Virus record (IMG/VR): IMGVR_UViG_3300032308_002775
Coordinates: 64,001 to 128,000 of that record
DNA length: 64,000 bases
Source: a virus
Direction: 5' to 3' (one strand)
Position 1 is the first letter of the stretch. Each line of letters starts with the position of its first letter. Of the stretch, positions 33,652 to 50,367 are shown piece after piece. The translations under genes and the position numbers were made by a program. The notes beneath the pieces were generated by a model. That model ran no database searches. It was not told the DNA's origin and saw nothing but the letters and a program-made list of their open reading frames with translations.

Positions 33652-33672
33652 TTTCACATGAATGCGTGAATT
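33651..33672. promoter_or_regulatory. TTTCAC-N8-GTGAAA inverted repeat, copy 2
   Basis: ATTTCAC-ATGAATGC-GTGAATT, just 5' of SD AGGAGG. Confidence 0.5.
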
Positions 33673-33686
33673 GCCAGGAGGGCAGC

Positions 33687-34226
33687 ATGAGCGACTGTAA
33701 CGTTTCTTCATCGTTTGGGGGCGCCATCGAGCTGAACGAGACGCTCGGAATCAATTTCTATGAGCCCGACGCGCCCGTGACGTTGCCGCCCGATTCTGGG
33801 CGCCGGATTCAGCTCAGCTGGGCCGTCAGCCGGTACAACTACCACAGCACAGACGGCGTCCGCGTGCGCATCGAGGCAGCCAACGCCGAGCTGATGCCTG
33901 AGAAAATCTTCGCCTACCTGCTGCTCCCGATGAAGCCCGCGGCCGGTGAGCGCGAGGGCGCCTTCTCGCACGTGTGCTCTCCGACCGACCTGGCGGAGTT
34001 CCCTGAAGACGACCCGGTTCCCGGCGTGCGGCCCGAGTGGTTCCGCCTGAACTACGTCGACGTCCAACTGCGCAGCCGGTCTGAGGCCAAGCAGTTCATT
34101 CAGGATGTAATTGACGACGTTCAACGACTCAAGAGCACCCTCGATACAATGGACACGCTACAGTCCGGCGGCACGATCTGGGTGGGCAGCCCGCCGTCTG
34201 ATTCTTCCTCTTCTGAGGCCCTGTGA
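33687..34226 (+). CDS. Hypothetical virion-associated protein
   Basis: SD AGGAGG before ATG 33687. Ser-rich termini. Confidence 0.6.
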   Translation: MSDCNVSSSFGGAIELNETLGINFYEPDAPVTLPPDSGRRIQLSWAVSRYNYHSTDGVRVRIEAANAELMPEKIFAYLLLPMKPAAGEREGAFSHVCSPTDLAEFPEDDPVPGVRPEWFRLNYVDVQLRSRSEAKQFIQDVIDDVQRLKSTLDTMDTLQSGGTIWVGSPPSDSSSSEAL

Positions 34227-34528
34227 TGAAAGATCTCGTGGTAATCGAAGACAGCACGATTCTCTCTATGCTGCAGGACGCGCGGTACACAGATACGATT
34301 CCGTGCCTGTTCAATAAAGCAGAGATCTTTCGCGCGGGTCCCGGCTCGTGCGGCGCCTGCGCGCGCAAAAGAAAAGAGAAGCAGCGCGCCGAAATGGCCA
34401 AGATCAAAACCTGCCTCGCTGCGTTGAGCGCTGAAAAAAAAGCGGCGTTCAAGCAGCTTGTCGGCGCAAAGAAAATCCGCGTCACGTATGTGAACGCTAC
34501 AGGCAGCGTTGTGCAGCTGACGTTCTAA
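34223..34528 (+). CDS. Small basic protein with CGAC motif
   Basis: 101 aa, last gene of the structural operon. Confidence 0.6.
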   Translation: MMKDLVVIEDSTILSMLQDARYTDTIPCLFNKAEIFRAGPGSCGACARKRKEKQRAEMAKIKTCLAALSAEKKAAFKQLVGAKKIRVTYVNATGSVVQLTF

Positions 34529-34533
34529 ATTTC

Positions 34534-34607
34534 GGCAGAAATCCTGGCATATAAGGTGTACCACCCGCATTGGTTTTGGTGGTACGTCCTTACCAGGAGT
34601 TTCTGCC
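34534..34607 (+). promoter_or_regulatory. RBS-sequestering long hairpin with internal -10-like element
   Basis: Four nested stems (GGCAGAAA/TTTCTGCC, TCCTGG/CCAGGA, TAAGG/CCTTA, GTACCACC/GGTGGTAC) ending right at ATG 34608. Confidence 0.75.
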
Positions 34608-34979
34608 ATGGCGATTGCCAACTGGACCGAGCTGGAGACGATTGAGGGGATCATCACGGGCCGGATCACGCCCGAGACCCTTCCGTTCGCGGCCCTCGAC
34701 GCCGACAAGCAGGCGGAGATCATCGACGAGATCGATGCCGTCTGCGATGATGTGGCGTCCGGGGTCCTCGAGGCCTACCCGGACCTCGACGATCCGGCGC
34801 AGCGGCTGGACCGGCTCCGGATGTACCGGGCCGAGGTGGTGCGGCGCCAGGACGGCGCGAAGCGCGAGGCCTACGGGGCCTACTTCGACGTCCTGCACGG
34901 CGTCTGCCTCCGCAACGCCGCCGGGCCGCGGACCTACGTGGCCGACGAGAGCGGCTGTCTCGAGCTGATCGTGGCCTAA
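34608..34979 (+). CDS. Hypothetical acidic protein
   Basis: SD AGGAG, very high GC3, flanked by two RNA structures. Confidence 0.7.
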   Translation: MAIANWTELETIEGIITGRITPETLPFAALDADKQAEIIDEIDAVCDDVASGVLEAYPDLDDPAQRLDRLRMYRAEVVRRQDGAKREAYGAYFDVLHGVCLRNAAGPRTYVADESGCLELIVA

Positions 34980-35013
34980 TCGCCACGGCAGACACTTCTG
35001 AACCTCGTTCGTT

Positions 35014-35090
35014 GCGCGGCTGTGTAGCCGGGCACGAGCATATCTTCGGATATGTTCGTGTTCCGGTTACACAGCCCGCACGTTATTTAT
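35014..35090 (+). terminator. About 30-bp hairpin with C(UUCG)G loop (terminator, processing site or ncRNA)
   Basis: Arms 35014-35044 and 35049-35079 pair with several G-U pairs and are followed by TTATTTAT. Confidence 0.65.
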
Positions 35091-35124
35091 CAGCTTCCAC
35101 TTTTTCCTTTGCTATCAGAGCTTC

Positions 35125-35649
35125 ATGAAGAAACACACGCTCCCCAAGAAGCCGCCTACCAAGCGCCCGCCTTTCGTGATGAAAGAGCCCAACGACAACC
35201 TTGAGGCGTACGGCTGGTCGCTGCAGTGGCTGCGCTACCAGGCGGCTGACGACCCGCAGATCGCCGGTCGCCCGGTGTTTCAGCTGGCCACGGACCTCAA
35301 GACGATCAAGCGTTACGGCGTCGACTTGTCCTTCATCGACCCGAAGTACATCCAGTACATGCTCGACCAGCGCCCTGAGATCAAGAAGGGCGCAGAAAAA
35401 GTCAGGGCCGCGGGTTACACACCCGAGGCCCTGGAGAAGTTCAAGAACATCGTGGTCAAAACGTTTGAAGAACACGTGCTGGTCGACATCGCCCAGAAGT
35501 TCTTCAAGGTCTCCCCGCTCGTCGCCCAGTTCTACGCCGCCAAGCTCGCTTACGAAGATACGTTTGGCGGCGGAGAAGAAGAGGACAACGACGAGGAGCC
35601 GACCGAGCCGCCTCAGATCGAGGCCAAGACCACGAAGTCCCGGCGGTAG
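35125..35649 (+). CDS. Hypothetical protein
   Basis: 174 aa, phage-like codon use, acidic/basic C-terminal tail. Confidence 0.6.
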   Translation: MKKHTLPKKPPTKRPPFVMKEPNDNLEAYGWSLQWLRYQAADDPQIAGRPVFQLATDLKTIKRYGVDLSFIDPKYIQYMLDQRPEIKKGAEKVRAAGYTPEALEKFKNIVVKTFEEHVLVDIAQKFFKVSPLVAQFYAAKLAYEDTFGGGEEEDNDEEPTEPPQIEAKTTKSRR

Positions 35650-35891
35650 CCAACGACCGGCCCGCGCTTGCCCAGGAGAAGCTGGTCGTCGGTATTGCCC
35701 TCGGCGTCGACCGGATACGGACCGCTGGCGTTCGAAACGCCCGGGCGATTCAGCCCAGCCTCGGCCGCCTTTTGCAGTACCATGTTCGAGGTGCTGGCCG
35801 CGAGCAGCTCTTCGATGCTCTTGCTGGTGACCACATAGTCGGCCCGGCCGTTCGTGACCTTCGACAAATCATCGAGAATGGAAACACTCAT
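35613..35891 (-). CDS. Small hypothetical protein (minus strand)
   Basis: MSVSILDDLSKV..., SD GGAGG 5 nt before the ATG on the minus strand. Fills the gap between plus-strand genes. Confidence 0.65.
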   Translation of the reverse strand: MSVSILDDLSKVTNGRADYVVTSKSIEELLAASTSNMVLQKAAEAGLNRPGVSNASGPYPVDAEGNTDDQLLLGKRGPVVGYRRDFVVLASI

Positions 35892-36366
35892 GGAAACCTC
35901 CGAAAACCAGGAATTAACCGTAACGCTGGCCAGTCTAGCGCCGATTCTCAAGCTCGACAAGTTGCAACTGCGCTCGGCGGCCCGCGTTTACAACTACACC
36001 GACGAAAGCGCTGCGCTGCCCAGATTCGTCACCCTGCGGCTGCTTCTGACCGACCTGCTGGAGCGGCTGGCGTTCTTGAAACCCAGCCAGCGCCAGGCGA
36101 TTCTGGAACGATACGACCAGGACGTCGACGATAACCGGGACCAGTGGGAAACCCTGGCTTTCGCCGACGGAAACTGGTGTACCTGGACGGGCCACTACGG
36201 CTGGTTGGATCTGACCAGCGGCGACGTCGTGGCGACGCTGCCCGCCGCTCCGGTTGAGACCATTGGGTACAATCTGGTGACGCTCCATCACCGAGCGATG
36301 GCGCAGCTCAGGAAAAGGATTTCCGATGGCGAAAAACATTCTGCAGGAAGCATGGACGAGCCGTGA
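35890..36366 (+). CDS. Hypothetical protein
   Basis: METSENQELT..., ATG overlapping the minus-strand start. An upstream ATG at 35878 is also possible. Confidence 0.55.
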   Translation: METSENQELTVTLASLAPILKLDKLQLRSAARVYNYTDESAALPRFVTLRLLLTDLLERLAFLKPSQRQAILERYDQDVDDNRDQWETLAFADGNWCTWTGHYGWLDLTSGDVVATLPAAPVETIGYNLVTLHHRAMAQLRKRISDGEKHSAGSMDEP

Positions 36367-37000
36367 AACGTTCGCGACAGTCCTGCTAACACTCTTCCTG
36401 GACCGGTTCGGCGTGGAGGCTCTTGAGTGGGACCCCTCGACGATCGCCCTGGAAATCGAGGAAGAGTTTGATGTCGACCTGCCCCGGCTGAACTTCGACA
36501 AGCTCATGGTGGCTATCCAGATCCTGACCACGGATCGGTTCCACAAAAGCCTGCCGGACTTCATCGAGTTCTGTAACGTCTTGTGCGGCGACATCTACGA
36601 CCCCCACACGTTCGACCCGGCCGACGCCGAGGAGGTCGCCTGGGGGATCACCGAGAGCATGCTCATTGCGCCGCCGGATGACGAGGACAACGAGCCGTTC
36701 ACTGACGAGATCCGCGCCTACATCGGCATGGTGCTCGACCAGGAAGGGATCATGAACGCTCCCGACGTTCTGCGGATCGCGCTGCGCAAGGCGCACGTCT
36801 CCCAGTCCGTCGAAGATTTCTCGGACGACCCGGAAATGTTCAGCGCCATCTACGACGTCGAGGCGGCCAAGACCGCCGAGATCAATCAAACCATTGTCAC
36901 GAAGACGCAAATTCTAGCTGCGCAATTGACTGCGCTGCAGCTGAAGAACGGTAACACGCAAGCAGTAGCCAAAATGCTGCACGACTCTGTGCAGCGTTAG
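36326..37000 (+). CDS. Hypothetical acidic protein
   Basis: SD AAGGA, 224 aa, strong codon bias. Confidence 0.7.
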   Translation: MAKNILQEAWTSRETFATVLLTLFLDRFGVEALEWDPSTIALEIEEEFDVDLPRLNFDKLMVAIQILTTDRFHKSLPDFIEFCNVLCGDIYDPHTFDPADAEEVAWGITESMLIAPPDDEDNEPFTDEIRAYIGMVLDQEGIMNAPDVLRIALRKAHVSQSVEDFSDDPEMFSAIYDVEAAKTAEINQTIVTKTQILAAQLTALQLKNGNTQAVAKMLHDSVQR

Positions 37001-37015
37001 GCAGAAGGGAACCCA

Positions 37016-37219
37016 ATGCTCGTCCTTTCTCGAAAGAGAAACGAGAAAATACTCGTCGGTCACGACATAAGAATTACGGTCGTCGAAATATTGCCCGACC
37101 GCGTCCGCCTGGGAATCGAGGCGCCAGAGCAGGTGAGCGTGGTGCGCGCCGAACTGGCCAAGAACTGGCGCGGCCGTAAGAAGGCCGGAGAAAATGGGGT
37201 GGAACGACCGTCTGCCTGA
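37016..37219 (+). CDS. csrA: Carbon storage regulator CsrA homolog
   Basis: MLVLSRKRNEKILVGHDIRITVVEILPDRVRLGIEAPEQVSVVRAEL, a canonical CsrA signature. Confidence 0.95.
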   Translation: MLVLSRKRNEKILVGHDIRITVVEILPDRVRLGIEAPEQVSVVRAELAKNWRGRKKAGENGVERPSA

Positions 37220-37505
37220 TTGCGACGCAGGCTTACCATCCGAAGACGAACGCCAGGCTTATTTCGACTGGCAAGAATATCAGCACTATTGCGCGATGCT
37301 CGACGCGGAAATCGAGCAGCAGTCTGCGCCGCCCACTCCAGAACGGATGGGCATCTCTTCGCAGACCATCGATCCCGACAGCTTCGGGGGCCTGTCCAAA
37401 GATATCTTTCCCGACCGGCCCCTTGCACCAAAGGAGTTTGCCAATGCCCCAGGTCAAATCCAAGACCAAGTCAAAGACAAAGACGATCAAAACCCAGAAG
37501 GATAA
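37194..37505 (+). CDS. Hypothetical protein
   Basis: SD GGAG, overlaps the csrA 3' end. Confidence 0.45.
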   Translation: MGWNDRLPDCDAGLPSEDERQAYFDWQEYQHYCAMLDAEIEQQSAPPTPERMGISSQTIDPDSFGGLSKDIFPDRPLAPKEFANAPGQIQDQVKDKDDQNPEG

Positions 37506-37794
37506 GATCGTCGCGCACATCTCGCCGGAGACGCTGTTCAAGGACGGCGGCCTGTTTGACGCCGTGGCGCTTCTGTGCTCCATCTTCAACCGCAAGCCTC
37601 GCCGCCCGTGCGTGCGCCAGGCCACGATCTATGGCGTCAAGCAGATCGCGACCATGCTGCTCGCGCAGGACAAGGACGTACCGGAGGCGCTGCGGCTGCT
37701 GGACAAGGACGCGCTGGCGTCTGGCGACGGCCGATCAACCGTTAGCGAGTTCGTACAGGCGCTCGAGCGGAAGAAGACTGTCGGCCGCCGCTGA
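37444..37794 (+). CDS. Hypothetical protein, Lys-rich N-terminus
   Basis: SD AAGGAG before ATG 37444 (MPQVKSKTK...). Confidence 0.65.
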   Translation: MPQVKSKTKSKTKTIKTQKDKIVAHISPETLFKDGGLFDAVALLCSIFNRKPRRPCVRQATIYGVKQIATMLLAQDKDVPEALRLLDKDALASGDGRSTVSEFVQALERKKTVGRR

Positions 37795-38910
37795 CTTCAC
37801 GGCGGGCTCCAGCCCCTTCTCGGCCGCCAGACGGTCGAGCGTCGAGGCCATGCCGCGGTCCAGGGTGGGCACGATCGCCGCGAGCTTGTCGCGGTCGAGG
37901 TACACGCCACCGGCCGTGACGGCATCGGCGAACTCGTCGCCCAGCCAGGCGCGAACGTCGTCCTCGGCGAGCTTCTCAAGATCCTCGAGGTTGTAGACGT
38001 TGCCCGTGGTCGTCTCGACGTGAGCCTTCATGAAGTCCGCGGCCACCTTCTCGGTGATCGCAAACAGAACCTCTTCAGCCCGGGGCAGGCCGCCAGCGTC
38101 GTAGAGCCGGTCCAAGTGGTTCGCCCGGTCGAACTCATCGACCGCGGAGGCCAGCTTGAGCCGCGTCTCGTGCGTCCGGGCCTGCTCCGGGTTGCGGTCG
38201 ACGACCTCGGCCAGCTTCAACATGCTGCCCGCCGACTCGGGGCTGTGGCGCATGACGAGCGCCGCCCGGTTGCGCAGCATATCGCTGGCAACCTTGGCCG
38301 CGCAGGCGCCTTGCCCGGCTGCCAGCTCCAGGGTGTCCTCGGCCTCGCTCGTGTCGGCGCCGTACTCGGCCGCCTTCTCGAGGATCTTCGTAGCGATCGT
38401 GTGCCGGTCCTCAAAGGTGAACTGGTCGCGATGCGCCTTGAAATGGGCGGCTGCGAACTTCACCTCGGTGGCGTTGCGCAGCGGCCAGTGCCGGTCCTTG
38501 TTACCGGCCTCGTCGGCCCAAACGATGGCGAACTCGCTGTCAGGGAGGCTGGCCAGGTCGGTCTTGGTCGACGAGGCCACCTTGCCGCGGAGTTCCTTCA
38601 CGAGGCCGGTAATGCCAAAATAACTGGCAGCGGCGTCGATCCGCTCCTCAATCTGGGCGGCGTTGTCCGACTTAAACGAGGCGCGCTTGTCCCCGAAGAA
38701 AAGGGCGGACATCCACGTTGCGGGCGCGGAGTGGCACGGATAGAGTTTGTTGAGCGGATCAGCGTAAAGATGGCGCTGGAGGTTTTCACCCCCCAGCAGC
38801 CGCTCCTGGCTGGCAGCCTTGACGAAGTCGGGCGCCGGGAACAACGCGGTCAGCCGATGGGCTTCGCGACCACTGATGTCTTGCGTCTGATCGAGCGGAA
38901 TGTTTGCCAT
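37735..38910 (-). CDS. Probable head/internal virion protein with two DUF6582-like motifs and KxA repeats
   Basis: LYADPLNKLYPCHS and LPDSEFAIV...RHWPLRNATEVKFAAAHF resemble the 'LPDS.FA.P..R.YP' motif. Twelve KxA[SAE] sites. Confidence 0.55.
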   Translation of the reverse strand: MANIPLDQTQDISGREAHRLTALFPAPDFVKAASQERLLGGENLQRHLYADPLNKLYPCHSAPATWMSALFFGDKRASFKSDNAAQIEERIDAAASYFGITGLVKELRGKVASSTKTDLASLPDSEFAIVWADEAGNKDRHWPLRNATEVKFAAAHFKAHRDQFTFEDRHTIATKILEKAAEYGADTSEAEDTLELAAGQGACAAKVASDMLRNRAALVMRHSPESAGSMLKLAEVVDRNPEQARTHETRLKLASAVDEFDRANHLDRLYDAGGLPRAEEVLFAITEKVAADFMKAHVETTTGNVYNLEDLEKLAEDDVRAWLGDEFADAVTAGGVYLDRDKLAAIVPTLDRGMASTLDRLAAEKGLEPAVKSAAADSLLPLERLYELANG

Positions 38911-41542
38911 GGCGCTGCCTATTTCCTTAGTCCGCCGACACAACCACTTTAAAGCCCTGTCGGCATTGGGCATCCTGCCAGAAAAACCGTTATTTCCAGC
39001 GGTAGTCGACTGTCCTCTCTGCCATCAAGCGGGACTCTACCTGTTCGACGACTTAATGACGGACGGTATCTGGGCGCATTGCGAATCCTGCCGTGCGCAT
39101 GGTGACATTCTAACGTTTGGCGCGCTTGTCTGGAACAACAGCCTGGCCGACGCTATTAACCGGTTTGCCGACCTGGGCGCCGCGGCCCGCGGCGAGGCAG
39201 ACCGGAACGCAGGCGAACACATTCGCTGCTTGGGCCGCTTAAAAACGGCTGAAATGTTCTGGGATACGGCTGCCGGGCAGATCTGGAACCACCACGACGA
39301 CGTTATCGCCTGTCGCCTGCGCGAACTGGGCCTGGACAGTACTGTCGAAGGCTGCGAGGGCCTGATTGGCGTGGCCCATCACGACCAGGTTGCCGAGTTC
39401 TGCAAGGCCGTGGGTCGCGCCACGCCGCCACGAATGCGCGAAAACGGACCGAGTCTGGTCCTGCCTTACTACGATCTACCCGGGCGAATCACGGGCGTCT
39501 TGCTCGTCCAGTACAACGACGAGTTCATGTCGCGGCGGGTTTTCGTACCGCTAACGGGCATCATGCGCCGCAAGGCGGACGCCGGGTATTTTCAGCTGGC
39601 CACGACCCTGCTGCCCAGCCCCAAGGACCTGCGCAACTCGTACTTTGTAACCGATGACCCGTTCTGGGTTATCAAGGCCCAATGCACGCAGCTCAAGGCA
39701 GGACAGCGTCTGTTGCCGCTGGCCGCCAGTTACGCCGGGCCCGAAGCCGTGAGTATCGGACTGAACTGGCAGTCGTTTGCTCCCACGGCGCGGCTGTTTC
39801 ATGCGGCGATGTATACGCCAGAGGTGATTTCCCAGGCCGCCGCTGCCAAGGGTTACGTGTGCATCCTGCCGCCGGAGACCGTGCAGCGGACGCCGCAGCC
39901 CTTGCGCACCCTCCATCGCCTGGCGGCCGTTCGACGCGAGGCGCAGACCTGGCAAACCGCGTTGGAGAAAGCCCTGGCGAACACCAACGAGATGGCCGCC
40001 CAGTCCTTCGTGACCAAACTCACCATCGACCTGAACCGGTTGCAGCACTTCTTTCGCTACCGGCGCCACAAGCTCCCCCAGGACTTCTGCGCCCGGTTGC
40101 TCAGCCAGGTCGAAGACGCGCCCGGTATTCCAGCGAAAGCCCAGCGCCGCGTAATTGTCATCGAGCGCGACGGCTGCTGGTGGACCCATACGAATAATCA
40201 AATCTGCAACGCGCGGCTGCGAATTAACAAAATCGTTTACACCGAGGGCGGCGGGCGGCTGTACGTCGGCACGATCCTGATGGGCGAACAAGAATTCGAA
40301 TTCGCTGACTCGGCCGACAAAATCGAACAGATGGGGTTGCTGGCCTACGCAGCGCAGCATGTGGCAGCCCGCGGCCATCTGCTGATCTACGACCGGCCTT
40401 GGAACTCAAAAAGCCACCAGACGGCGCTGCGTTTCAGCACGCCGGAAATCATCCGGATCACGGGCGTCGCCGGGTGGAACGAGGAAAGCGGGCAGTTCTG
40501 CTTTCGGGATTACTCGATCAGCAATGACGGGACGGTCGTGCCCTGTCTCTACCCGCAAGCCAACAGCGGCGTGCCGAGCTTTCCAGAACCGACCGATGTC
40601 GCCCCCGTAACGATTCACAACCTGCTCACGCCGAGCCACGAGAACGCGCTGTTCTGGTCGACCTTCGCCGCGTTTGCCGCGCAGCTGCTGGCCCCGGTGG
40701 CCGGACGACAACCCGTCGCGACTGCCCTGGTCGGTTCCGCATTCAGCGCCGTTCTGGGTATCGGAGACGCGCTGCAGGGTTTCGTGTTCCGCTCCACGGC
40801 CAGCCAGCGCCAGGCAGCAGCCACAAACCTGATTGCTCACCTCAAGGGCAAACGCTGGCCGGTGCTGGCCCATCACGCGTTCAACGACGCGGAAATGAGC
40901 CGTACCGTGGTGCGCATCCCGGCCGCCGCACTTTTCGTCCGAGCAGCCGAGTGCCCGGCCTGCGTTGCCCCTAGTTATGGCTGGCAGTTCATCCGGGGCA
41001 GCGCCGATACGCTTCCGGACTTTTCAGCCATGCGCTACATTCTGCCCGCCTACATCCAGCGGGCGCTTCAAAACCGCATGGCTGTCGCCTCTCAGCATGA
41101 AAACCTGGCGCGCGCCATCCTGGAAGACCTGGCTGGGTGGCTGAAAGATATCTATGGCGTTACGTTCAATCTGGCCTGCGCGACCAACCGACTGATCACC
41201 CCCGACCGGGCCCACGAGGCCCTGATGGAGGCGGTCAACCTTGGCATCATGGCCGGGAAGATCGATGTCCTGCCCCGCCCCCGTCGAAAGTCGCAGGCCG
41301 GAAACTACGTTTTGAGAAATAAACAGCACTGGTGGTTGAATCAAAAGGCCATAAATCAGTACTGTATTTCTGCTGGCGGAATTAGTCCTAACTGGACAGA
41401 AGTCATTCACCGGCTAACTGCAAACGGCCTGCTCGTTGACGAGCAGAGCGTGCAAGGCATGCCCGGACTTCTGGTCAAGAAAGACTGGTGCGACCAGTTC
41501 TGGTCCGATTACAACCTCACGGATGTGCGCGACATTGGCTAG
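38909..41542 (+). CDS. Primase-helicase-like protein (zinc finger, DnaG-like and DUF927-like parts), catalytic motifs degenerate
   Basis: CPLCH...AHCESCRAHGDIL...LADAINRFA (CHC2-like), LVLPYYDLPGRITG, GWNEESGQFCF. No TOPRIM DxD or Walker A seen. Confidence 0.55.
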   Translation: MALPISLVRRHNHFKALSALGILPEKPLFPAVVDCPLCHQAGLYLFDDLMTDGIWAHCESCRAHGDILTFGALVWNNSLADAINRFADLGAAARGEADRNAGEHIRCLGRLKTAEMFWDTAAGQIWNHHDDVIACRLRELGLDSTVEGCEGLIGVAHHDQVAEFCKAVGRATPPRMRENGPSLVLPYYDLPGRITGVLLVQYNDEFMSRRVFVPLTGIMRRKADAGYFQLATTLLPSPKDLRNSYFVTDDPFWVIKAQCTQLKAGQRLLPLAASYAGPEAVSIGLNWQSFAPTARLFHAAMYTPEVISQAAAAKGYVCILPPETVQRTPQPLRTLHRLAAVRREAQTWQTALEKALANTNEMAAQSFVTKLTIDLNRLQHFFRYRRHKLPQDFCARLLSQVEDAPGIPAKAQRRVIVIERDGCWWTHTNNQICNARLRINKIVYTEGGGRLYVGTILMGEQEFEFADSADKIEQMGLLAYAAQHVAARGHLLIYDRPWNSKSHQTALRFSTPEIIRITGVAGWNEESGQFCFRDYSISNDGTVVPCLYPQANSGVPSFPEPTDVAPVTIHNLLTPSHENALFWSTFAAFAAQLLAPVAGRQPVATALVGSAFSAVLGIGDALQGFVFRSTASQRQAAATNLIAHLKGKRWPVLAHHAFNDAEMSRTVVRIPAAALFVRAAECPACVAPSYGWQFIRGSADTLPDFSAMRYILPAYIQRALQNRMAVASQHENLARAILEDLAGWLKDIYGVTFNLACATNRLITPDRAHEALMEAVNLGIMAGKIDVLPRPRRKSQAGNYVLRNKQHWWLNQKAINQYCISAGGISPNWTEVIHRLTANGLLVDEQSVQGMPGLLVKKDWCDQFWSDYNLTDVRDIG

Positions 41543-41852
41543 GCTTATCAGTTTGTTTGAACAGTTCAACGAGCTGGCAAAACAATACGCCCGCTTCGAC
41601 GACGGCCTTGACGACGATTTTGTCGAAGAGGAGTGGCAGTTTGTCCACGGGTCAGATGACGACGAGGACGAGGACGACGATTTCTTGCGTGCTCCTGCGC
41701 CGAATTACCTCGAGGAAGACGAAGAAGACGAGGAAGACGACGAGGAAGATTACGAAGACGACGAAGATGACCTGGACTGGGACGCCGGAACAGAAGATTA
41801 CGAAGACGACGAGGACAGTGACGACTGGTACGAAGAGGACGAGGAGGACTAA
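41523..41852 (+). CDS. Extremely acidic low-complexity protein
   Basis: C-terminal ~85 aa are mostly D/E with spaced W/Y. Start uncertain. Confidence 0.6.
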   Translation: MCATLARLISLFEQFNELAKQYARFDDGLDDDFVEEEWQFVHGSDDDEDEDDDFLRAPAPNYLEEDEEDEEDDEEDYEDDEDDLDWDAGTEDYEDDEDSDDWYEEDEED

Positions 41853-42304
41853 TTCAGACTTTTCTGCCCTTCGCGCGCTTTAACAAGTGCGCGTATGTGC
41901 TCGATAACAAAAGGCTTTTCAAACAAGCCGTCGAATGCAAGCAGATCCTTCTAGCGCTCGGCGTATCAGTCGGCGCCAATAAGCCAACAGGCAGCAAGGC
42001 CTGGCAGAATCATCCGGCGGTCCGCATGTGGCGCGGACATGAGCTGGCCCTGGCGATCTACTCGGTCCACATGGCGCTGGAATGTCGGCGCCGCGGCTAC
42101 AAAGACGGCCTGCTCGCGGAATTTCTTGAGGTCGTCCGGCAGCTGCGCAAGCCCGACGAGCCCGCGCGCTATCCGCCGTGGATGAAAGACTGGAGTATTA
42201 TGACCAGCCACCGGTCCAACCTCCTGCGCAAGGACAAGGACCACTACACACGGTTCGGCTGGCTCGTGAAGCCGGACCTTCCCTACAAGTGGCCCGTACC
42301 ATGA
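41852..42304 (+). CDS. Pyrimidine dimer DNA glycosylase / endonuclease V-like (MSMEG_6728-like family), ATT start
   Basis: (I/M)QTFLPF...LDNKRLFKQAVECKQIL...HPAVRMWRGHE...SHRSNLLRKD..HY...PYKWP. Confidence 0.8.
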   Translation: MQTFLPFARFNKCAYVLDNKRLFKQAVECKQILLALGVSVGANKPTGSKAWQNHPAVRMWRGHELALAIYSVHMALECRRRGYKDGLLAEFLEVVRQLRKPDEPARYPPWMKDWSIMTSHRSNLLRKDKDHYTRFGWLVKPDLPYKWPVP

Positions 42305-42317
42305 GCGCGAGGTTTGA

Positions 42318-42629
42318 ATGACAGCGCTGCCAAAACGCGCTATTGAAGTTGTAGACTTTACTGATTTTCATGATCGCCTGTCGCATGATTTATACGTCGC
42401 ACTTATTGACACCATCAATCAAAGCGACGTTTCATGGGGCACCAACGCCGACACGCTGATTACGCCCGCTGTTTGCGTCGATTTTCTAGCGCAGACGCTA
42501 GAAGACTTTTTAGACGGGCGCGACGAGGCAAATCGACTTGAGTGGGTAGAAACCATCGACGAAGCTCGCGCGCTGATCCGAGAAGTTGGCGAGTTGCCAG
42601 ACACCGTGTTTATCGCCCTGGGAAGCTGA
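42318..42629 (+). CDS. Hypothetical protein
   Basis: SD GAGG. Acidic, 103 aa. Confidence 0.6.
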   Translation: MTALPKRAIEVVDFTDFHDRLSHDLYVALIDTINQSDVSWGTNADTLITPAVCVDFLAQTLEDFLDGRDEANRLEWVETIDEARALIREVGELPDTVFIALGS

Positions 42630-42630
42630 T

Positions 42631-42963
42631 ATGGAAACCGTTGAGCGCGACGAGTACAGGGTTTCCGCGCGCGTTGTTCTCTGTAAGGGCGACATGTTTC
42701 GCGCTAGCGGCGGCCCCTACTACACTATGCGTGACGAAACTGGCAAACGGATCAAGTCCAGCATGGCCGCAAAAGGCCCGTTCAGATTTATTTCGTATTG
42801 CGAGCGCGGTCGGCGAAAATGGATCGTGGCCTATTCCATCAAAGAAGGCGGCTACGCGACGCTGCCACTGACCAGGTGGAAGACCGTCGACCTACCAAAC
42901 TTCGTAAACCGACCCTACACGATCGTGGGTAAGAAACGCCCGCCAAAGAAAGGGAAGCGATGA
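42631..42963 (+). CDS. Hypothetical basic protein
   Basis: METVERDEYRV..., directly after the previous stop. Confidence 0.6.
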   Translation: METVERDEYRVSARVVLCKGDMFRASGGPYYTMRDETGKRIKSSMAAKGPFRFISYCERGRRKWIVAYSIKEGGYATLPLTRWKTVDLPNFVNRPYTIVGKKRPPKKGKR

Positions 42964-43124
42964 GTCGCACACGCAAGCGCCCCTACACGGGCATAAAAAG
43001 ATTCGACAGCAGTTGCCGCTGTCACGGCAGCTGCAGCTACTGCCGCAACAACCGGCTGCACAGCACGCAACGGCGGCGCAGCTCGGCTGACGAGCAGCTG
43101 CACGCCTACCGTCGCGCGGACTAA
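42960..43124 (+). CDS. Small Cys/His (Zn-binding) basic protein, absent from the ORF track
   Basis: MSRTRKRPYTGIKRFDSSCRCHGSCSYCRNNRLH..., 54 aa, ATGA overlap with the previous gene. Confidence 0.7.
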   Translation: MSRTRKRPYTGIKRFDSSCRCHGSCSYCRNNRLHSTQRRRSSADEQLHAYRRAD

Positions 43125-43134
43125 AGTTAACACC

Positions 43135-43167
43135 CCTCCGTGCGATAAACTTAATATCGTACGGAGG
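43135..43167 (+). promoter_or_regulatory. 13-bp hairpin burying the SD of the GNAT-like gene
   Basis: CCTCCGTGCGATA-AACTTAA-TATCGTACGGAGG. GGAGG is the SD of ATG 43174. Confidence 0.65.
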
Positions 43168-43173
43168 CGCGCT

Positions 43174-43626
43174 ATGAATTTCGAAGTCCGGATCAAAGAT
43201 ATCAATCACCTGGGTCTTACGGACGTGACGGCCATCATGAGCCGCCTGTCGCACCCCAACTCCGGGAGCGCCAGCTCTATCCAGCCAGAGCTGATCAAGC
43301 GCTACGTCAAGCCGGAGCCAGGCCCGCACCCGCCCATGTGGCTGGCGATGGTCTGGCAGAACGGCCTGTTCGTCAGTTGGGTCGGCACCCGGCTGTGGCC
43401 CGAGAAATTCAAGGGCGACCTCGTGATGGCGCAGACGATCGAGTGCTTTACTGATTCGGAATGCCGTCGACACGGGCTTGCCCGGCTGGGGCTCCAGGCG
43501 CTGATCTCCGCAGGTTTGCTCGACCGGAACAAGATTGTCTCGGTCTACGCCGCGGAGGTCGTCAAGATGGCCCAGCAGTGCGGGTGCAAGACGGTTATCC
43601 TCTGCCACGCCGAGGAGGAAACGTGA
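43174..43626 (+). CDS. GNAT-like acetyltransferase
   Basis: IECFTDSECRRHGLARLGL resembles GNAT motif A (R-x-x-G-x-A). Confidence 0.5.
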   Translation: MNFEVRIKDINHLGLTDVTAIMSRLSHPNSGSASSIQPELIKRYVKPEPGPHPPMWLAMVWQNGLFVSWVGTRLWPEKFKGDLVMAQTIECFTDSECRRHGLARLGLQALISAGLLDRNKIVSVYAAEVVKMAQQCGCKTVILCHAEEET

Positions 43627-43868
43627 AACGTTACCACGAAGAACAACACATCGCGGCGCACCGCGTAAAACTTTACAAGCAACTGGGCGGTTATCTCGGC
43701 CCGGCGCACGATAAGTATGTTCCAGACACCGGACGGTTTCGCAAGACGCTTCGATGCGCGGGCTGCGGTCGTGCCCGTTGCCAAGTGTGTCATTCAGAAA
43801 AATTTCCTAAGCGTACGCCTACCCGACAAGAGCAACAGGCGCAGCGCGACTTTACCCAGGAGGACTGA
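43623..43868 (+). CDS. Small Zn-finger-like protein
   Basis: GTG after SD GAGGAGG. CAGCGRARCQVCH. Confidence 0.6.
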   Translation: MKRYHEEQHIAAHRVKLYKQLGGYLGPAHDKYVPDTGRFRKTLRCAGCGRARCQVCHSEKFPKRTPTRQEQQAQRDFTQED

Positions 43869-44581
43869 TGGGCGCGTGCTTTACGAGCACCAAGTTTGAG
43901 GGCAACCTCACCAGCACAGAATTGCGTCGCCAATACGACGCCTATATCACTGATCTCCTGCACGAGCACGGCACCGACGCCTACAACGGCACGCTGACTA
44001 CCACCAGCGGACTGATCATCGAGGACAAAATCTTCGACACAGAGAAGGCGGCCTACGATCACGTCATCAATAACACCCAAAAGTGGCAAGAAGCGCGGGC
44101 CGTAAAGTTTCGCGACATCCAAACCGAGCCCGACAAGCAACCGACTTACAACGGGCAACCGTTGCGTTTCGGCATCGGGCTGCTCGCGGGTGGCGTGACA
44201 CTGCGAAGCGTCACGGGCGTGTTTGTCGACAGCGCACGGCAGCTAATTCCAGCCGACCAGCTCCCCGCGGCGCACAAAGCCAAAGCCGTTGCGCTATACG
44301 CGGACTACGATGAGAAATACGCCGCGTATGGCAGCGTGCGCCAACAGATCGACCAGCTCGTCACTGAGAAGATTCAGAACGTCAAGGCCGAACTGCCGAC
44401 CACGTCCGACTACTCCGAGTTGAAGCGGCTGCTGAAGCAGCGCAAGCGCGCTTATGTCGCCTTGCAGAAGGCCTGCACGAAGATGCAGGAGTTTGATATT
44501 ACACAATCGGCCAAGATCTACAGCACCAAGCAGGTCGACCACGGAACCAAGTGGTTCGTAGGCGGCTGGGCTGCCGAGTGA
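43868..44581 (+). CDS. Hypothetical protein
   Basis: TGATG overlap, SD GGAGG. MGA...HGTDAYNGT N-terminus and WFVGGWAAE C-terminus, as in common phage early proteins. Confidence 0.65.
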   Translation: MGACFTSTKFEGNLTSTELRRQYDAYITDLLHEHGTDAYNGTLTTTSGLIIEDKIFDTEKAAYDHVINNTQKWQEARAVKFRDIQTEPDKQPTYNGQPLRFGIGLLAGGVTLRSVTGVFVDSARQLIPADQLPAAHKAKAVALYADYDEKYAAYGSVRQQIDQLVTEKIQNVKAELPTTSDYSELKRLLKQRKRAYVALQKACTKMQEFDITQSAKIYSTKQVDHGTKWFVGGWAAE

Positions 44582-44609
44582 CCCTAACCACACCAAGAAG
44601 GAGAACCTC

Positions 44610-44921
44610 ATGGACTACGTGAAGCAGATTCAGGACTGCGGCCTCGCCCTGGCGGACGCCGTGAAGATCGAGATGGACCTCGAGAACCGGCGCCACAATT
44701 TCAAGCTGGACGCGATCGGCCGGATCATGAAGTCGGGCGACAACCCGCTCACCAATAAGCCGCACAGCTACAGCTCGGCGGAAGCACTGGTCACGACGGA
44801 CCAGCGTTACGCCGATTACCTGGACGCAATCGCCAACGCCGTGCGCGGGAGGATTATCGCTAAGGCCCAGTACGACGCGGCCCTCGCCGCCGCCCGGCTC
44901 GTGGAAGCAACCGAGGTATGA
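44610..44921 (+). CDS. Hypothetical protein
   Basis: SD AAGGAG. Helical, 103 aa. Confidence 0.7.
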   Translation: MDYVKQIQDCGLALADAVKIEMDLENRRHNFKLDAIGRIMKSGDNPLTNKPHSYSSAEALVTTDQRYADYLDAIANAVRGRIIAKAQYDAALAAARLVEATEV

Positions 44922-45262
44922 TGACTGAAACTAAGCAAGCAGTTGGGTTTGAGGCCGTCAGGGCCGCCATCAAGCATTTTGAATCTATCCAGGTGATGAA
45001 TCGCGCGTATGGTGCCCTCGACACCGAACCTGATGGCGTTTTCCAGCGAATTCTCTGGGACGTGATCAACGACAAGGACACCAGCATCCCCATGAGCGGC
45101 GACGGCTGGGAGCTGTACACCAGCAGCATGGACTGCACCAAGGCGGCCGATGCGTTGCACCTGGCTGCAGTGGCCGCCGTGCAGGCAATCTTTGCCTGCC
45201 GAATTGCCGACCGCCGCAAGGTGCGTGAGTATCTCGAAGACTACTGCTGGCGGTGCAACTAG
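44918..45262 (+). CDS. Hypothetical protein
   Basis: ATGA overlap, SD GAGG. Confidence 0.65.
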   Translation: MMTETKQAVGFEAVRAAIKHFESIQVMNRAYGALDTEPDGVFQRILWDVINDKDTSIPMSGDGWELYTSSMDCTKAADALHLAAVAAVQAIFACRIADRRKVREYLEDYCWRCN

Positions 45263-45279
45263 CCGTGGGCCGCGCAAAC

Positions 45280-45723
45280 ATGAAACAGGCGCGCGAGCAC
45301 GTTAAGGCAGGCAACCGCTTTAGGGGCTCAAACGTCTTTGGTCGAAACCTGCACAACGGATCGTATTGCGTGTGGTCCTACACGGAAGCGTGGCCGCTTT
45401 ATTTGCGCTGGTGCGGCGAATGGTTTGGCAATTCCGGCTGGTATTCGCGTACAACACACCAGCACAAAGTAATACTGTGTCCGGGAGACAAGATCAGCTG
45501 GCTGCCGCGTTCGGTGATGCAGGTGTTCGTGGCGTACTGCGATTCGGCGTCTTGGCACTCAAAAGACACGCCGCTAGATTACGTGCTCGAGACCAGTGGC
45601 TTAATTCCGCCAAGGGCGGTGGTTGCGGTACCGCAGCCGAACATCCCCGAAGTCACGACGCATCTAGCTCGCGCTGAGGTTGACTGGGGCGCGGTTCGCA
45701 GGCGCCGGGTTATGCCGGTTTGA
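45280..45723 (+). CDS. Hypothetical protein with C-terminal AVRRRRVM motif
   Basis: YCVWSY...PLY...GEWFGN..WYSRTTHQH motif. Start may be GTG at 45265. Confidence 0.6.
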   Translation: MKQAREHVKAGNRFRGSNVFGRNLHNGSYCVWSYTEAWPLYLRWCGEWFGNSGWYSRTTHQHKVILCPGDKISWLPRSVMQVFVAYCDSASWHSKDTPLDYVLETSGLIPPRAVVAVPQPNIPEVTTHLARAEVDWGAVRRRRVMPV

Positions 45724-45729
45724 TATCTT

Positions 45730-47655
45730 TCAGAACCCGCTGAAGAACCGGTCGCCCAGGTCGTCGTCGGCCCAGTTGTCCGGGTTCTCGGCGGCTACAG
45801 TCTGCGCGCTGAGCCGTCCGAGCCCGGCTATCTCGGCGAAGTTTGGCAGCGACTGGTTGATGTGCCAGAGCGCGTTCGTGCCGAAGTTTACGCTTTGGGC
45901 AAAGTCGTCCGAGAGCAGCACGTTCCGGGTAATGGTGTAGATGTCGCCCGAGCTGCGGCTCTCGGTCTTGTTTTCGATGAGCGACAAAAAGTCAGCGATC
46001 AGTCCGGGATTGTCCTGCGTGATCCAGTCGTACTGGAAGAACCGGACCTGCTTGAGCTTGATTGCCTGGCAGGTGTACAAGAGCGAGCGCGTCTTATCGA
46101 GCGAGTAATGCGCGCGGTGGTTGAACGCCGTGGGTTCCTTGTAGACCATCAGGTCCTGCGCCGCCGAGCGGCACAGCCGGATGGCCATGACACGGTCGAG
46201 GTTAAACCCTGCCTGGACCATCACTGTTTCGCGCACCGTTCCGGCGCCGGTGTAGTCGTGCGTGACAAAATCGCACTTAAACAACTCCGAGTACTTCATG
46301 CACTCCACGGCCTCGGCCAGGTGCTCGCCGCCCAGCATGATTCGCTTGCCCCACAGCACGTCGATCACGCCATCGGAACGGAAACCCAAGATCGAAATTA
46401 CGGTGAAAGAAACACCCGCCTCACCGCCGCCGCCCCAGTCAATCGCCAAAATCCGGTGCTTGTACTGATCGAGGTTCTTCAAGCACTCAGGGTCCGGCTC
46501 GCGCTTGTTCTCCCACGGGAGCAGGCAGGCGTTGCGCAGGTCGGTTTCCGTCACGAGCTTCTGCCCGGCGTCAATCGATTCGCCGAGCACCTCGTTGTAG
46601 AACTGGGCCTGCGTGTAGTTAAAGCCTTCGCGTTTTTGCAGCAACGTTGCCCACTTGTCGGGATCGGCGTAGTGCAGGGGCAATAAAAGCTGCGGCACGT
46701 GATAACCCGCGAAGTTCCATCGGCGATCCGGATGCCGATGAACCCAGCGGCCGTGCCTTGGATTGATTGGCTTCTGGCACTTGGCGCAGACCGTGGCTGG
46801 CGCCTTCTCGCTGATGTCGTCCCGGTAGGGGCCGATCATCGCGTCAAGGTCGTGCTCGCGAGACGGAATGTTCCAGTGCCTGCACGAGTGGCACGGGATG
46901 AACCACTCGGCTGCCGAACTGCGCTGATATAACCCCTCTAAAGGGTTATCCAGGGTCTTCGGCGTGCCCGTGAAATGGCTCATCGCGAACCGCGAGTACG
47001 ACATTGTCTCCTGGATAATCGGAATGTGGTCGGGGTCCATGTCCTGGACCTCGTCGATGCACATCCGGTCGCTGGACACACCACGCACCCGGTCGGCGTC
47101 GAGCATCGCGTAGCTGAACAGCATCATGCTCTTGTTCTTGAACGAGCGCTGCAGCACGTTGTTGTCGGTTTCGCTGCCGCACCACTGCGCTTTGATGGGA
47201 GACTGCTCGATAAAGCTCCGAACATAGTTGTTGCTGAACCGACGTATCTGTTCAAAGAGCGGTGTTACGTACAACGTTTTGAAGAACGGGATACTATTGG
47301 CTACCACAACACCATGCGCCGCCAACGAAGTGGATTTCGAGAGCTGACGGCCCGTCTTCCAGACCTGGCTCTTAGGCATGAGCACCCTGAACAGGGGCGC
47401 AAAGGGAAAGTGATCGTGGATTGAGTACGGCTTGCCGTTCAGGTTTAACACCAGCGGCAGGATCGGCTCCAGAGACGGAAACGCGCGCTGCTCGGCCAAC
47501 GCCTTGAGCACCTGCGTTCGCTCATTTGCAGACCTCTGGTCGGTGACGTTAATACCGGCCAGTTCTTCCAGCAGCGATCGAACCCCGTTACCGGGCACTT
47601 CATGCGCTGCTAATTCCAGCGGGTTCACCGCCCGCGTATCTATCGATGGTGACAT
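45730..47655 (-). CDS. Terminase large subunit (GpA-like)
   Basis: Walker A-like KTGRQLSKST, Walker B RGVSSDRMCIDEVQD, GTP coupling motif, Zn motif CHSC...CAKC, FYNEVLG, nuclease AIDWG, DDFAQS. Confidence 0.9.
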   Translation of the reverse strand: MSPSIDTRAVNPLELAAHEVPGNGVRSLLEELAGINVTDQRSANERTQVLKALAEQRAFPSLEPILPLVLNLNGKPYSIHDHFPFAPLFRVLMPKSQVWKTGRQLSKSTSLAAHGVVVANSIPFFKTLYVTPLFEQIRRFSNNYVRSFIEQSPIKAQWCGSETDNNVLQRSFKNKSMMLFSYAMLDADRVRGVSSDRMCIDEVQDMDPDHIPIIQETMSYSRFAMSHFTGTPKTLDNPLEGLYQRSSAAEWFIPCHSCRHWNIPSREHDLDAMIGPYRDDISEKAPATVCAKCQKPINPRHGRWVHRHPDRRWNFAGYHVPQLLLPLHYADPDKWATLLQKREGFNYTQAQFYNEVLGESIDAGQKLVTETDLRNACLLPWENKREPDPECLKNLDQYKHRILAIDWGGGGEAGVSFTVISILGFRSDGVIDVLWGKRIMLGGEHLAEAVECMKYSELFKCDFVTHDYTGAGTVRETVMVQAGFNLDRVMAIRLCRSAAQDLMVYKEPTAFNHRAHYSLDKTRSLLYTCQAIKLKQVRFFQYDWITQDNPGLIADFLSLIENKTESRSSGDIYTITRNVLLSDDFAQSVNFGTNALWHINQSLPNFAEIAGLGRLSAQTVAAENPDNWADDDLGDRFFSGF

Positions 47656-47820
47656 ATGCCCAAGTATCCCGAGCATGGTCGTTACGCGCAACCAAGCGCC
47701 GAAGGAGAACTCCAGTGGCTAGAGGACGGGATTCACGTCCTGTTTGAAGTCACGTGGCAAGCAACTGCCACGCTTCTCGGCGCGCTGATTGGCGTCATCA
47801 CCGGCGAAGAGCCGTGGTGA
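47656..47820 (+). CDS. Small hypothetical protein, absent from the ORF track
   Basis: MPKYPEHGRYAQPSAEGELQWLEDGIHVLFEVTWQATATLLGALIGVITGEEPW, 54 aa, hydrophobic C-terminal half. Confidence 0.45.
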   Translation: MPKYPEHGRYAQPSAEGELQWLEDGIHVLFEVTWQATATLLGALIGVITGEEPW

Positions 47821-47839
47821 CGGCATAACGACCGTGAGG

Positions 47840-47879
47840 CCTGGACGAGTATACTCAAGGGTGACTCGTTCAGGTTTTT
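47840..47879 (+). terminator. Intrinsic terminator-like hairpin
   Basis: CCTGGACGAGT...ACTCGTTCAGG followed by TTTTT. Confidence 0.55.
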
Positions 47880-47891
47880 AGGAGCGCCGCC

Positions 47892-48116
47892 ATGGCTAAT
47901 GTGGGACACAGCGCCAAGCTGTATCAGGAACGACGTGAGCCGAACTTGCGTGTAACTTTGCGCGGCCCAGGCCCGCAAATTTACCTGCCGGACAACGCGG
48001 CCAATCACCTTAACCTGGAGGCGCCGCTTCCGTTACCGACCCTGCTTGAAGACAACTGCGCGCCCGCTGACGTGAAAACGCAGGTGTGGCCGCACGGAGA
48101 CAAGTATGCCCCGTGA
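47892..48116 (+). CDS. Hypothetical protein
   Basis: SD AGGAG, 74 aa. Confidence 0.55.
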   Translation: MANVGHSAKLYQERREPNLRVTLRGPGPQIYLPDNAANHLNLEAPLPLPTLLEDNCAPADVKTQVWPHGDKYAP

Positions 48117-48307
48117 ATGAAACCTACGATTATGAACGCTTGTTTCTGGTATTTGGAGGCGGCATCGTCGTGGTGTCCGCGATCGCTGTTCTAGGCGGTT
48201 GCCAATCTTTCGGCGATTTTGCTGCCGCGCTATTGGCGGGATACGTTCTGCTGCGCATCACCAACACAATGCGCCAAGAAGACACGCAGTACAGGAGGCG
48301 CCGATGA
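48113..48307 (+). CDS. Small membrane protein (2 TM)
   Basis: GTG start, two hydrophobic segments, basic tail. Confidence 0.55.
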   Translation: MNETYDYERLFLVFGGGIVVVSAIAVLGGCQSFGDFAAALLAGYVLLRITNTMRQEDTQYRRRR

Positions 48308-48711
48308 TTTCGGTTCTCGATTTCTTCGCTGTCGTCATGGCTACCGGCGCCGTAATCGAAGTCTGGCACAAAGGCTCAATCTTCGCCGACCTCCGCGCCA
48401 GGGCGCAGGCTATCCAAGACGTCACCGAGCCGGACACGCTCAAGGGCAAGCTGCTCGAGCTGCTGATGTGCCCTTTCTGCAAGAGCTACCACGTGCCGTT
48501 CTACCTGGGCGTCATGATCTTGCTAGGTGACTGGGCTGGCGCTACGATCGGGGCAGTCGCGCGCCTGCTCGTCTACAGCCTGGCCGCGACGCGCATTTCC
48601 AACATCGTTGACGGGCTATTGCCGCCCAATCTTCAGTACGACCCACCCATTGAAGGAACCACCAGTGGAAAATCAGACGCCGGAGATTCAGTCAGATCGG
48701 CTTCCGTTTGA
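48304..48711 (+). CDS. Membrane protein, DUF1360-like
   Basis: SD AGGAGG. SIFADLR...LLELLMCPFCKSYH plus TM segments. Confidence 0.55.
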   Translation: MISVLDFFAVVMATGAVIEVWHKGSIFADLRARAQAIQDVTEPDTLKGKLLELLMCPFCKSYHVPFYLGVMILLGDWAGATIGAVARLLVYSLAATRISNIVDGLLPPNLQYDPPIEGTTSGKSDAGDSVRSASV

Positions 48712-49048
48712 CGTTCAACTTTTCAAAGCTGCTGACGAGTTCTCCTCGGCTGTCATGAAGGCTGTGCCCGAGCTGCACGGCATCGCCATCGTTCCGATTT
48801 GGAACACGCAGCCCAAAGACACGCCCTCGGGGCTTCTGCGGCTGCGCAATCCGCAACCGCCGTTCGTTGCCAGCCTGCTATCGCTCTTGAAGCGCCTTAC
48901 GGCGTTCAGCGTCGAAGTCCACAAGGACCTCATGAACCAATTCGGCATGTACGACCAGTACGCCGCCGAGTTGTCGCGCCAGATCGCTGCAAAGCAGGAA
49001 GAACTGGCCGCTCCCGCGGCGCCGCAGAGTGAGGACGCGAATGGCTGA
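48665..49048 (+). CDS. Hypothetical protein
   Basis: GTG after AAGGA. MENQTPEIQ... Confidence 0.55.
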   Translation: MENQTPEIQSDRLPFDVQLFKAADEFSSAVMKAVPELHGIAIVPIWNTQPKDTPSGLLRLRNPQPPFVASLLSLLKRLTAFSVEVHKDLMNQFGMYDQYAAELSRQIAAKQEELAAPAAPQSEDANG

Positions 49049-49343
49049 CGACAAGACTCCGACAACCGAGATTACGATTGCCGCAGATAATGAGACGCTG
49101 CGGGATTTGCTCCAGAACCAATACGGCCGCTGCGAAGCGGGCGAAGTTCGCGCTGCGCTCGAGGGACAGTACTCGATCGTCTGGAACGAAGACGAGTTTC
49201 AGACGGCATTCGACCTTGTCGAGACAGCTCCGCCTTACGTCACTGTGGTAAACAAAGAAACCGGACAGCCCGGCACGCTGATCTACGTAGACAGCCCGCG
49301 GTTCTACTTCCTGTTCAACCCCGAGATCAACAATGGCGAATGA
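49041..49343 (+). CDS. Hypothetical protein
   Basis: SD GAGGA. APPYVTV...GTL.Y..SPRFYF motif. Confidence 0.6.
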   Translation: MADDKTPTTEITIAADNETLRDLLQNQYGRCEAGEVRAALEGQYSIVWNEDEFQTAFDLVETAPPYVTVVNKETGQPGTLIYVDSPRFYFLFNPEINNGE

Positions 49344-49797: not shown

Positions 49798-49833
49798 TCG
49801 CTCGCGCGGCCCGCAGCTCTGATTGCAGACCTG

Positions 49834-50363: not shown

Positions 50364-50367
50364 TCTG

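Follow-up and report, generated by a model that had tools for sequence, protein, structure and literature searches.

The promoters pR and pL of coliphage 186 form a switch of two promoters positioned face-to-face. Another face-to-face promoter switch, that of Streptomyces coelicolor scbA/scbR, has an overlap of 53 bp (PMC3134472). Noncontiguous operons were described for Staphylococcus aureus and for phage 80alpha, with ith-1/tha-1 and three more loci (PMC11087260), and repression by layouts of these kinds has precedent (PMC11087260; PMC3134472). Divergent pairs make up 0.9% of gene overlaps, 73% of them of the AT type (10.64898/2026.09.10.750558), and about 1% in another survey (PMC2478687). 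Here, three junctions with back-to-back start codons are described in a phage sequence of 64,000 nucleotides (“the window”), which represents bases 64001-128000 of the 153,669-bp virus record IMGVR_UViG_3300032308_002775. At each junction, a minus-strand gene, designated m1, m2, or terL (terminase large subunit), starts where a plus-strand gene starts, with both ATGs in a CATG or CATATG.

The reading favored here, to which we give somewhat better than an even chance, is that the junctions are overlapping divergent units, each pair mutually repressing via promoter interference and antisense pairing. Each backward gene would be a single-gene transcription unit directed against an otherwise one-way genome and coupled to its forward neighbor by the overlapping 5' ends.

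Start-codon geometry and its conservation

Junction 1 is a shared CATG at 35889..35892 with the ATGs at 35890 (plus) and 35891 (minus). It joins m1 (35613..35891, minus), encoding a conserved protein of 92 amino acids (aa) with 246 homologues, to the gene of a conserved 158-aa protein (35890..36366, plus). Junction 2, the CATG at 38908..38911 with ATGs at 38909 (plus) and 38910 (minus), is shared by m2 (37735..38910, minus; conserved protein of 391 aa) and the gene of an 877-aa primase-like protein (38909..41542, plus) with a Zn ribbon, TOPRIM, and DUF927. At junction 3 (47653..47658, CATATG here but CATG in other lineages), terL (45730..47655, minus; PHROG 675, E 4e-52) abuts a conserved 54-aa open reading frame (ORF; 47656..47820, plus) that contains an ELQWLED motif with a hydrophobic stretch behind it; the ATGs are at 47655 (minus) and 47656 (plus). 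These base positions match those of a first-pass annotation made from the sequence. All six ORFs are real protein-coding genes: m2 has at least 400 homologues and, at greater distance, 574 clusters (50%) at E<=1e-30, the 54-aa ORF occurs at 68 of 70 non-redundant terL loci, and homology reaches residue 1-2 in the primase and the 158-aa protein.

Conservation of the start codons, which the first-pass annotation had named among the checks to make, was found: the ATG on the opposite strand begins the reading frame of the real partner gene and is kept in place across N-terminal insertions and deletions (indels) until protein identity has fallen to about 40%. CATG was present at junction 1 in 27 of 40 loci, the remaining 13 having a start overlap of 11-17 nt, and at junction 2 in 48 of 52 loci despite indels in both N termini. 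It is also there in the distant relatives L135, L186, and L187, of which the latter two have a terL that is 45-47% identical. Among 68 loci of junction 3, 42 had CATATG, 20 CATG, and 6 another arrangement, which means that the starts abut in the window and overlap in 20 of the 68 relatives; the junction is kept although the distance from the Met of the 54-aa ORF to its motif varies roughly four-fold. The N termini of homologues support the start overlap at junction 2 (48/52) and at junction 1 (CATG or 14-nt overlap). In a terL tree, calculated as a quick version only, CATG is the form found in the outgroups, and the well-supported branches require that the junction 3 label changed at least three times; each change of the CATG label ended in back-to-back starts again.

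A CATG by itself is cheap because C precedes 53 of the 124 ATG starts in this phage. As a rough inference, the chance that each of three starts falls on either of two positions within 300 nt is near 3e-7, but conservation is the stronger argument for real junctions and outweighs this estimate. If the real starts were located further downstream, the CATG overlaps would be chance in-frame ATGs. Divergent overlaps of more than 60 bp are indeed usually start errors (PMC2478687), a C at −1 is common, and the alternative primase start shared most widely, a TTG or GTG that precedes the CxxC by 15 codons, exists in 24 of 48 loci. Misannotation is nevertheless very improbable. Besides the conservation of the CATG and the homology up to the first residues, the ATG of junction 2 is the sole ATG before the CxxC in 32 of 48 loci, the junction ATG is the first or only ATG of the 54-aa ORF at most loci, and 25 of 62 terL loci contain no other start codon in codons 2-16. 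The starts at 35878, 38900, and 47676, which had been proposed as those that might restore normal spacing, would instead enlarge the overlaps to 14, 11, and 21 nt. Upstream in-frame ATGs such as 38900 and 47676 are rare in the relatives, at scattered offsets. The start at 35878 is possible for the 158-aa gene (14-nt overlap), with 35890 having the better Shine-Dalgarno (SD) sequence (−3.3 versus −1.3 kcal/mol). The Atlas record of the primase starts at residue 50 and has thereby lost the first CxxC.

Promoters and translation signals inside the opposite genes

Codon alignments of 16 genes were scanned for promoters on both strands by median sigma70 score, yielding 19,630 position-strand slots; the distant m2 sequences, once aligned, differed too much to be scanned by locus. 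Predicted promoters of m1, m2, and the primase gene hold ranks 2, 4, and 6, whereas ranks 3 and 5 are deep within terL and may be chance. The predicted m1 promoter, TTGTCG-17-TAGACT (35932..35960, minus), lies inside the coding sequence of the 158-aa partner, with TTG and TA...T kept in 40 of 40 loci even where the encoded residues differ; the −12T corresponds to a synonymous third-position A in 39 of 39 loci versus 7.3 expected. Inside the primase gene is the predicted m2 promoter TTCCAG-17-TAGAAT (39107..39135, minus). Its family form, TATGAT, results from the rare Ile codon ATA (third-position A in 47/49 versus 6.9 expected). The predicted primase promoter TTGCGG-17-TAGAGT (38718..38746, plus) is located inside m2 and faces the m2 promoter; TA...T was found in 44 of 52 loci, the Ala codon GCA in 39 of 52 (8.3 expected), and a third-position A in 46 of 52 (24.7 expected). 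When 2534 synonymous sites were ranked, the m2 −12T was 1st, the m1 −12T 4th, and the T of the primase −35 site 8th. The −10 variants that retained TA...T under changed amino acids were TACCAT, TAGACT, TAAACT, and TATCAT in one series and TATGAT, TATCAT, and TAGAAT in another. A stock promoter scanner missed all three promoters due to its 9-of-12 threshold.

Transcription of the m2/primase pair is predicted to start near 38753 (plus) and 39100 (minus), which would give a 5' transcript overlap of about 350 nt centered on the CATG. The predicted leaders are 160-190 nt long and their distances are near-fixed. Because the promoters face each other, the regions of translation initiation on the two transcripts would be complementary to each other, as had been proposed in the first-pass annotation. 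The related proposal that the control signals must lie inside the opposite genes agrees with the promoters of m1, m2, and the primase gene and with the SD sequence of m1, all under strong synonymous-site constraint.

The strength of each SD sequence was compared with that after synonymous re-coding of the opposite gene (values in kcal/mol). The m1 SD sequence GGAGGT (35896..35901, minus) in codons 3-4 of the partner had a mean of −10.3 versus −3.2 for the controls; judged by this comparison, it is selected inside its partner's coding sequence. Smaller differences were found for m2 (−6.6 versus −4.6), for GGTGA of the 54-aa ORF (47648..47652, plus; in terL codons 2-3; −5.9 versus −4.8), and for the 158-aa gene (−5.4 versus −3.5), the latter value being that of the best of several starts and hence biased. 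No SD sequence was found for terL; its value of −2.5 was weaker than that of random ATGs (−3.5).

The evidence for an own promoter is strong by sequence for m1 and m2, whereas terL has only a candidate, the −10 element GATACT (47663..47668, minus), 7 nt upstream of the terL ATG. A −10-like hexamer precedes this ATG by 7 nt in the CATATG group and by 5 nt in the CATG group; of the hexamers within 120 nt, it has the highest mean −10 score in either group, with NA...T in 29 of 42; it lacks a conserved −35 site and also tracks codons 3-4 of the 54-aa ORF. A missing SD sequence together with a −10-like hexamer by the ATG suggests a leaderless terL mRNA, which may be as probable as not. A phiKZ-like TATG late promoter was dropped since it is missing from the CATG junctions. 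The palindrome AGTATACT at 47848-47855 was also considered as a terL promoter and is read instead as a plus-strand element because TATACT on the plus strand hardly varies, whereas on the minus strand the hexamer frequently reads TATACC or TATACA. This TATACT (47850-47855) is part of the 5' arm of a long covarying hairpin (47840..47879, plus; mean z −4.0, n=51), the stems of which vary freely yet stay paired. It is positioned just before the SD sequence of a 74-aa gene at 47892 and carries a T run in a subset of loci. It is likely a terminator and/or a promoter that delimits the unit behind the 54-aa ORF. A short GC hairpin (47619..47635, plus; terL codons 7-12) exists in the CATATG lineages only (mean z −1.5 versus about 0 in control windows and the CATG group) and is possibly a weak plus-strand terminator or a structure of the terL mRNA.

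No conserved plus-strand intrinsic terminator was found ahead of m1, m2, or terL, and Rho-dependent ends may exist; this absence would be permissive for read-through only. Because the 158-aa and 54-aa genes yielded no plus-strand promoter, both are probably made from RNA crossing m1 and terL. The strongly covarying hairpin (47840-47874) may be where this RNA stops, behind the 54-aa ORF. A plus-strand promoter in m1 near 35816-35821 occurs in part of the family only and is absent from the window. Two further elements were observed. A plus sigma70-like element near the 3' end of the primase gene (41337-41365) had the top median score and is conserved, with a degenerate form in the window; it is likely the promoter for the genes after the primase gene. 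Inside the 158-aa gene, 58 nt before a 224-aa gene, TATAAT or TACAAT (36268-36273) was found in 41 of 42 loci, with the Asn codon AAT in 41 of 42 versus 15.7 expected and no −35 site.

Origin, compaction, and timing

In five outgroup loci (L131, L128, L132, L186, and L183), the m1 homologue points forward. In four of these, its stop codon is located 0-3 nt before the start of the 158-aa homologue, and in L183, which has no such homologue, m1 precedes the 224-aa homologue. The lineages with an inverted m1 form one branch with a support of 100 on the terL tree. Since m1 of the outgroups runs in the same direction as this partner, its stop next to the partner's start, and the inverted lineages are one branch, junction 1 arose by an inversion of m1 in place. 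The flipped gene then gained its predicted promoter and its SD sequence inside its former downstream neighbor. Speculatively, recombination between two palindromic CATG starts would directly yield an inverted m1. For m2 and terL, which are antisense in nearly all relatives examined, the same origin is inferred: a gene would flip in place within an operon without spacers and its start would land on that of the next gene.

An active DNA inversion switch recombining at the palindromic CATG is the least probable of the explanations and already largely refuted. That m1 was inverted once in evolution and that CATG and CCATGG are palindromic would agree with it, but no orthologue was found on the other strand across the complete ingroup genomes, the junctions contain no extended inverted repeats, and the SD sites and promoters work in the present orientation only.

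If the junctions are mutually repressing units, polymerases starting from the face-to-face promoters at junction 2 would have to cross about 350 nt, and the leaders of m2 and the primase gene would be perfectly complementary across the two ribosome-binding sites. For junctions 1 and 3, translation of the forward partner would probably be from read-through RNA that is antisense to the whole backward gene. Transcription of the forward operon would thus keep the backward genes, including that of the packaging motor, at a low level, and vice versa. The CATG/CATATG geometry would be locked because an insertion between the two ATGs would displace both crossed SD sites.

The alternative of compaction followed by lock-in, the main rival, has clearly the smaller probability. 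Genes inverted for the sake of their own promoters would have lost their spacers by deletion bias, the minimal overlaps being CATG at the 5' ends and 4-nt shared stops at the 3' ends, and interlocked SD sites would freeze this geometry, with any antisense effect tolerated and not selected. In-place inversion alone produces abutting starts, and the majority of the bacterial divergent overlaps (73%) are of the AT type (10.64898/2026.09.10.750558). The 3' ends are relevant here. As claimed before, they overlap or nearly touch the preceding plus genes: a 174-aa gene (35125..35649) overlaps m1 by 37 nt (35613-35649), a 116-aa gene (37444..37794) overlaps m2 by 60 nt (37735-37794), and the stop of a 156-aa gene (45253..45723) is separated by 6 nt from that of terL (45723/45730). 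The 3' neighbor of m1 varies among relatives, the 116-aa gene is not family-wide, and the 156-aa gene exists in close relatives only. Even where the 3' neighbor changes between lineages, the gaps cluster at −4/0 (terL −4 in 28/60, m1 −4 or 0 in 21/38), as measured by a nearest-ORF method that may include spurious ORFs. Left unexplained by compaction are the primase promoter within m2, aimed at the m2 promoter with near-fixed leaders of 160-190 nt, and that the same three genes remained antisense among about 230 genes. In the relatives, two lineage-specific antisense genes are spaced normally (by 235 nt in one case and by at least about 100 nt in the other), which is counted in favor of mutual repression.

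Several results weigh against mutual repression. The 3' ends squeezed to −4/0 in many relatives point to a general compaction, and the most distant relatives relax the 5' spacing and cope with gaps of 25 nt (L183) and 41 nt (L189), within a range of 25-72 nt overall; at other far relatives, the gene has another neighbor (L184) or is co-directional (L188). The locus counts overstate independence because the loci are related. The primase SD sequence is no stronger than its synonymous control (−5.3 versus −5.7), no terL promoter is fixed across the family, and no plus promoter is fixed for the 158-aa or 54-aa gene. Moreover, similar TTG-16/18-TANNNT elements precede the structural operons (genome positions 52350, 64406, and 80069), and, going by these motifs, early and late genes are not told apart by the type of promoter. 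Because this type is shared with the structural operons and no phage sigma factor was found, it is silent on timing and on the polymerase used.

This last point concerns the version of the first-pass annotation, in which three late morphogenesis genes are silenced one-way by an early polycistronic RNA until late transcription begins. It is a sub-case of mutual repression, its probability being included in that of the broader reading, and taken by itself it is unlikely, a little more so than compaction. The late function of terL in a region of small and replication genes, the lack of conserved plus-strand terminators, the co-directional arrangement of terL, m2, and the 224-aa gene in the distant contig L188, and a phage RNA polymerase would agree with it. 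The outgroup m1, however, sits with its partner in an ordinary operon, and m1 and m2 have no functional match by sequence or fold. No clear match backs the designation of m2 as a probable head protein: its match to DUF6582 (20.6 bits) was weak and below the cutoff, and its predicted fold (pLDDT 86) had as best solved structure a helical bundle at Z 6.9, with only uncharacterized viral proteins as other matches. Among the GenBank phages, no cultured phage with a relative of m2 was found, and the predicted fold of m1 (pLDDT 93) had no clear structural match. Assigning m1 and m2 to the late genes is likewise not borne out, their promoters being of the same type as those of the primase gene and the structural operons. 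More doubtful still would be a design rule valid across the family, namely three repressor-free toggles, with flipped core genes, mRNAs mutually blocking their ribosome-binding sites, and promoters facing each other from within coding sequence, that time the step from replication (primase) to packaging (terminase).

The virus record is about 75% complete and belongs to an uncultured phage family of about 200 kb with conserved gene order; the record encodes its own two-chain multisubunit RNA polymerase and a tail sheath. Literature searches turned up no account of the family or of its junction set. A codon-model gene call of the whole contig yielded approximately 175 genes on the plus strand, and on the minus strand m1, m2, and terL as the only credible ones; a minus ORF at genome position 152119 was rejected as the shadow of a truncated plus gene. 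The three are also the sole conserved minority-strand genes of four relatives (198-205 kb). No sigma70 region-2 domain was found in five family genomes and no Rfam family in the region 33000-50000. A distant terL was found in a Blastopirellula metagenome-assembled genome (MAG), which is a host lead only; the relatives L186, L187, and L189 (GTDB contigs of 175-199 kb, probably whole phage genomes) were binned in bacterial and archaeal MAGs.

Other observations concern the surroundings. The 224-aa gene (36326-37000) is 65-87% identical across the family and has no family match; its place beside m1, m2, or terL is kept as far out as the very distant contigs L188 and L189, and it is likely a core gene. 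Insertions of about 1.2-1.4 kb, which are intron or intein candidates, split terL in L062/L131 (2950-6113) and L187 (8093-11326); terL of L021, L180, and L182 may be similar. A CsrA gene is located at 37016-37219, between junctions 1 and 2. Several structural-gene SD sites outside the window (genome G000, 41260-61000) read ACAYGGAGGT, the CsrA/RsmE binding consensus, and by eye, CsrA-type ANGGA sites were not consistent at the SD sequences of m1 or m2. All 30 AGATATCT words in genome G000 have two A/T on each side; they include those at window positions 9072, 14341, 19963, 32226, 37398, 41144, 49713, 53945, and 60244, and the 6-nt gap between the stops at 45723 and 45730 holds the related word TTTGATATCTTT. 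A tRNA-like sequence was seen by eye in an intergenic gap outside the window (genome G000, approximately 135320-135395).

Comparison with known systems

The junctions provide a dense and conserved natural case in which the coding sequence of one gene also carries the transcription and translation signals of the gene opposite, and this in essential phage genes. Comparison with the outgroups shows a route to start-start overlaps, by in-place inversion in a spacer-less operon, which overlap surveys had left open. In practical terms, gene callers truncate the primase at this locus, and the predicted promoters supply exact positions for testing interference versus antisense control.

The layout is a variation on the known, rare CATG overlaps, but one that is family-wide and conserved. 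As in the bacterial start-start AT/CATG overlaps (10.64898/2026.09.10.750558; PMC2478687; PMC2174442), two ATGs overlap in CATG. In contrast to these, every conserved minority-strand gene of the phage family uses the layout here, it interconverts with CATATG and with overlaps of 11-17 nt, and the embedded promoters and SD sites can be traced.

The first-pass annotation had suggested a noncontiguous operon or an excludon. Junction 2 fits an excludon-type pair and less so a noncontiguous operon because the primase gene appears to have its own promoter inside m2. With the noncontiguous operons, the junctions share an antisense gene nested in a co-directional run, here with a promoter of its own that is predicted for m1 and m2 and a candidate for terL. 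In S. aureus and 80alpha, mutual exclusion is by interference or duplex RNA. Here, in contrast, no spacer flanks the antisense gene, whose start is shared with the following gene; the phage also encodes an RNA polymerase, and the genes concerned include essential ones (terL and primase). With excludons and face-to-face switches, the m2/primase pair would have in common divergent genes, convergent promoters, and a 5' RNA overlap over the translation signals. Compared to scbA/scbR and to pR/pL of phage 186, the predicted overlap of about 350 nt would lie wholly within coding sequence.

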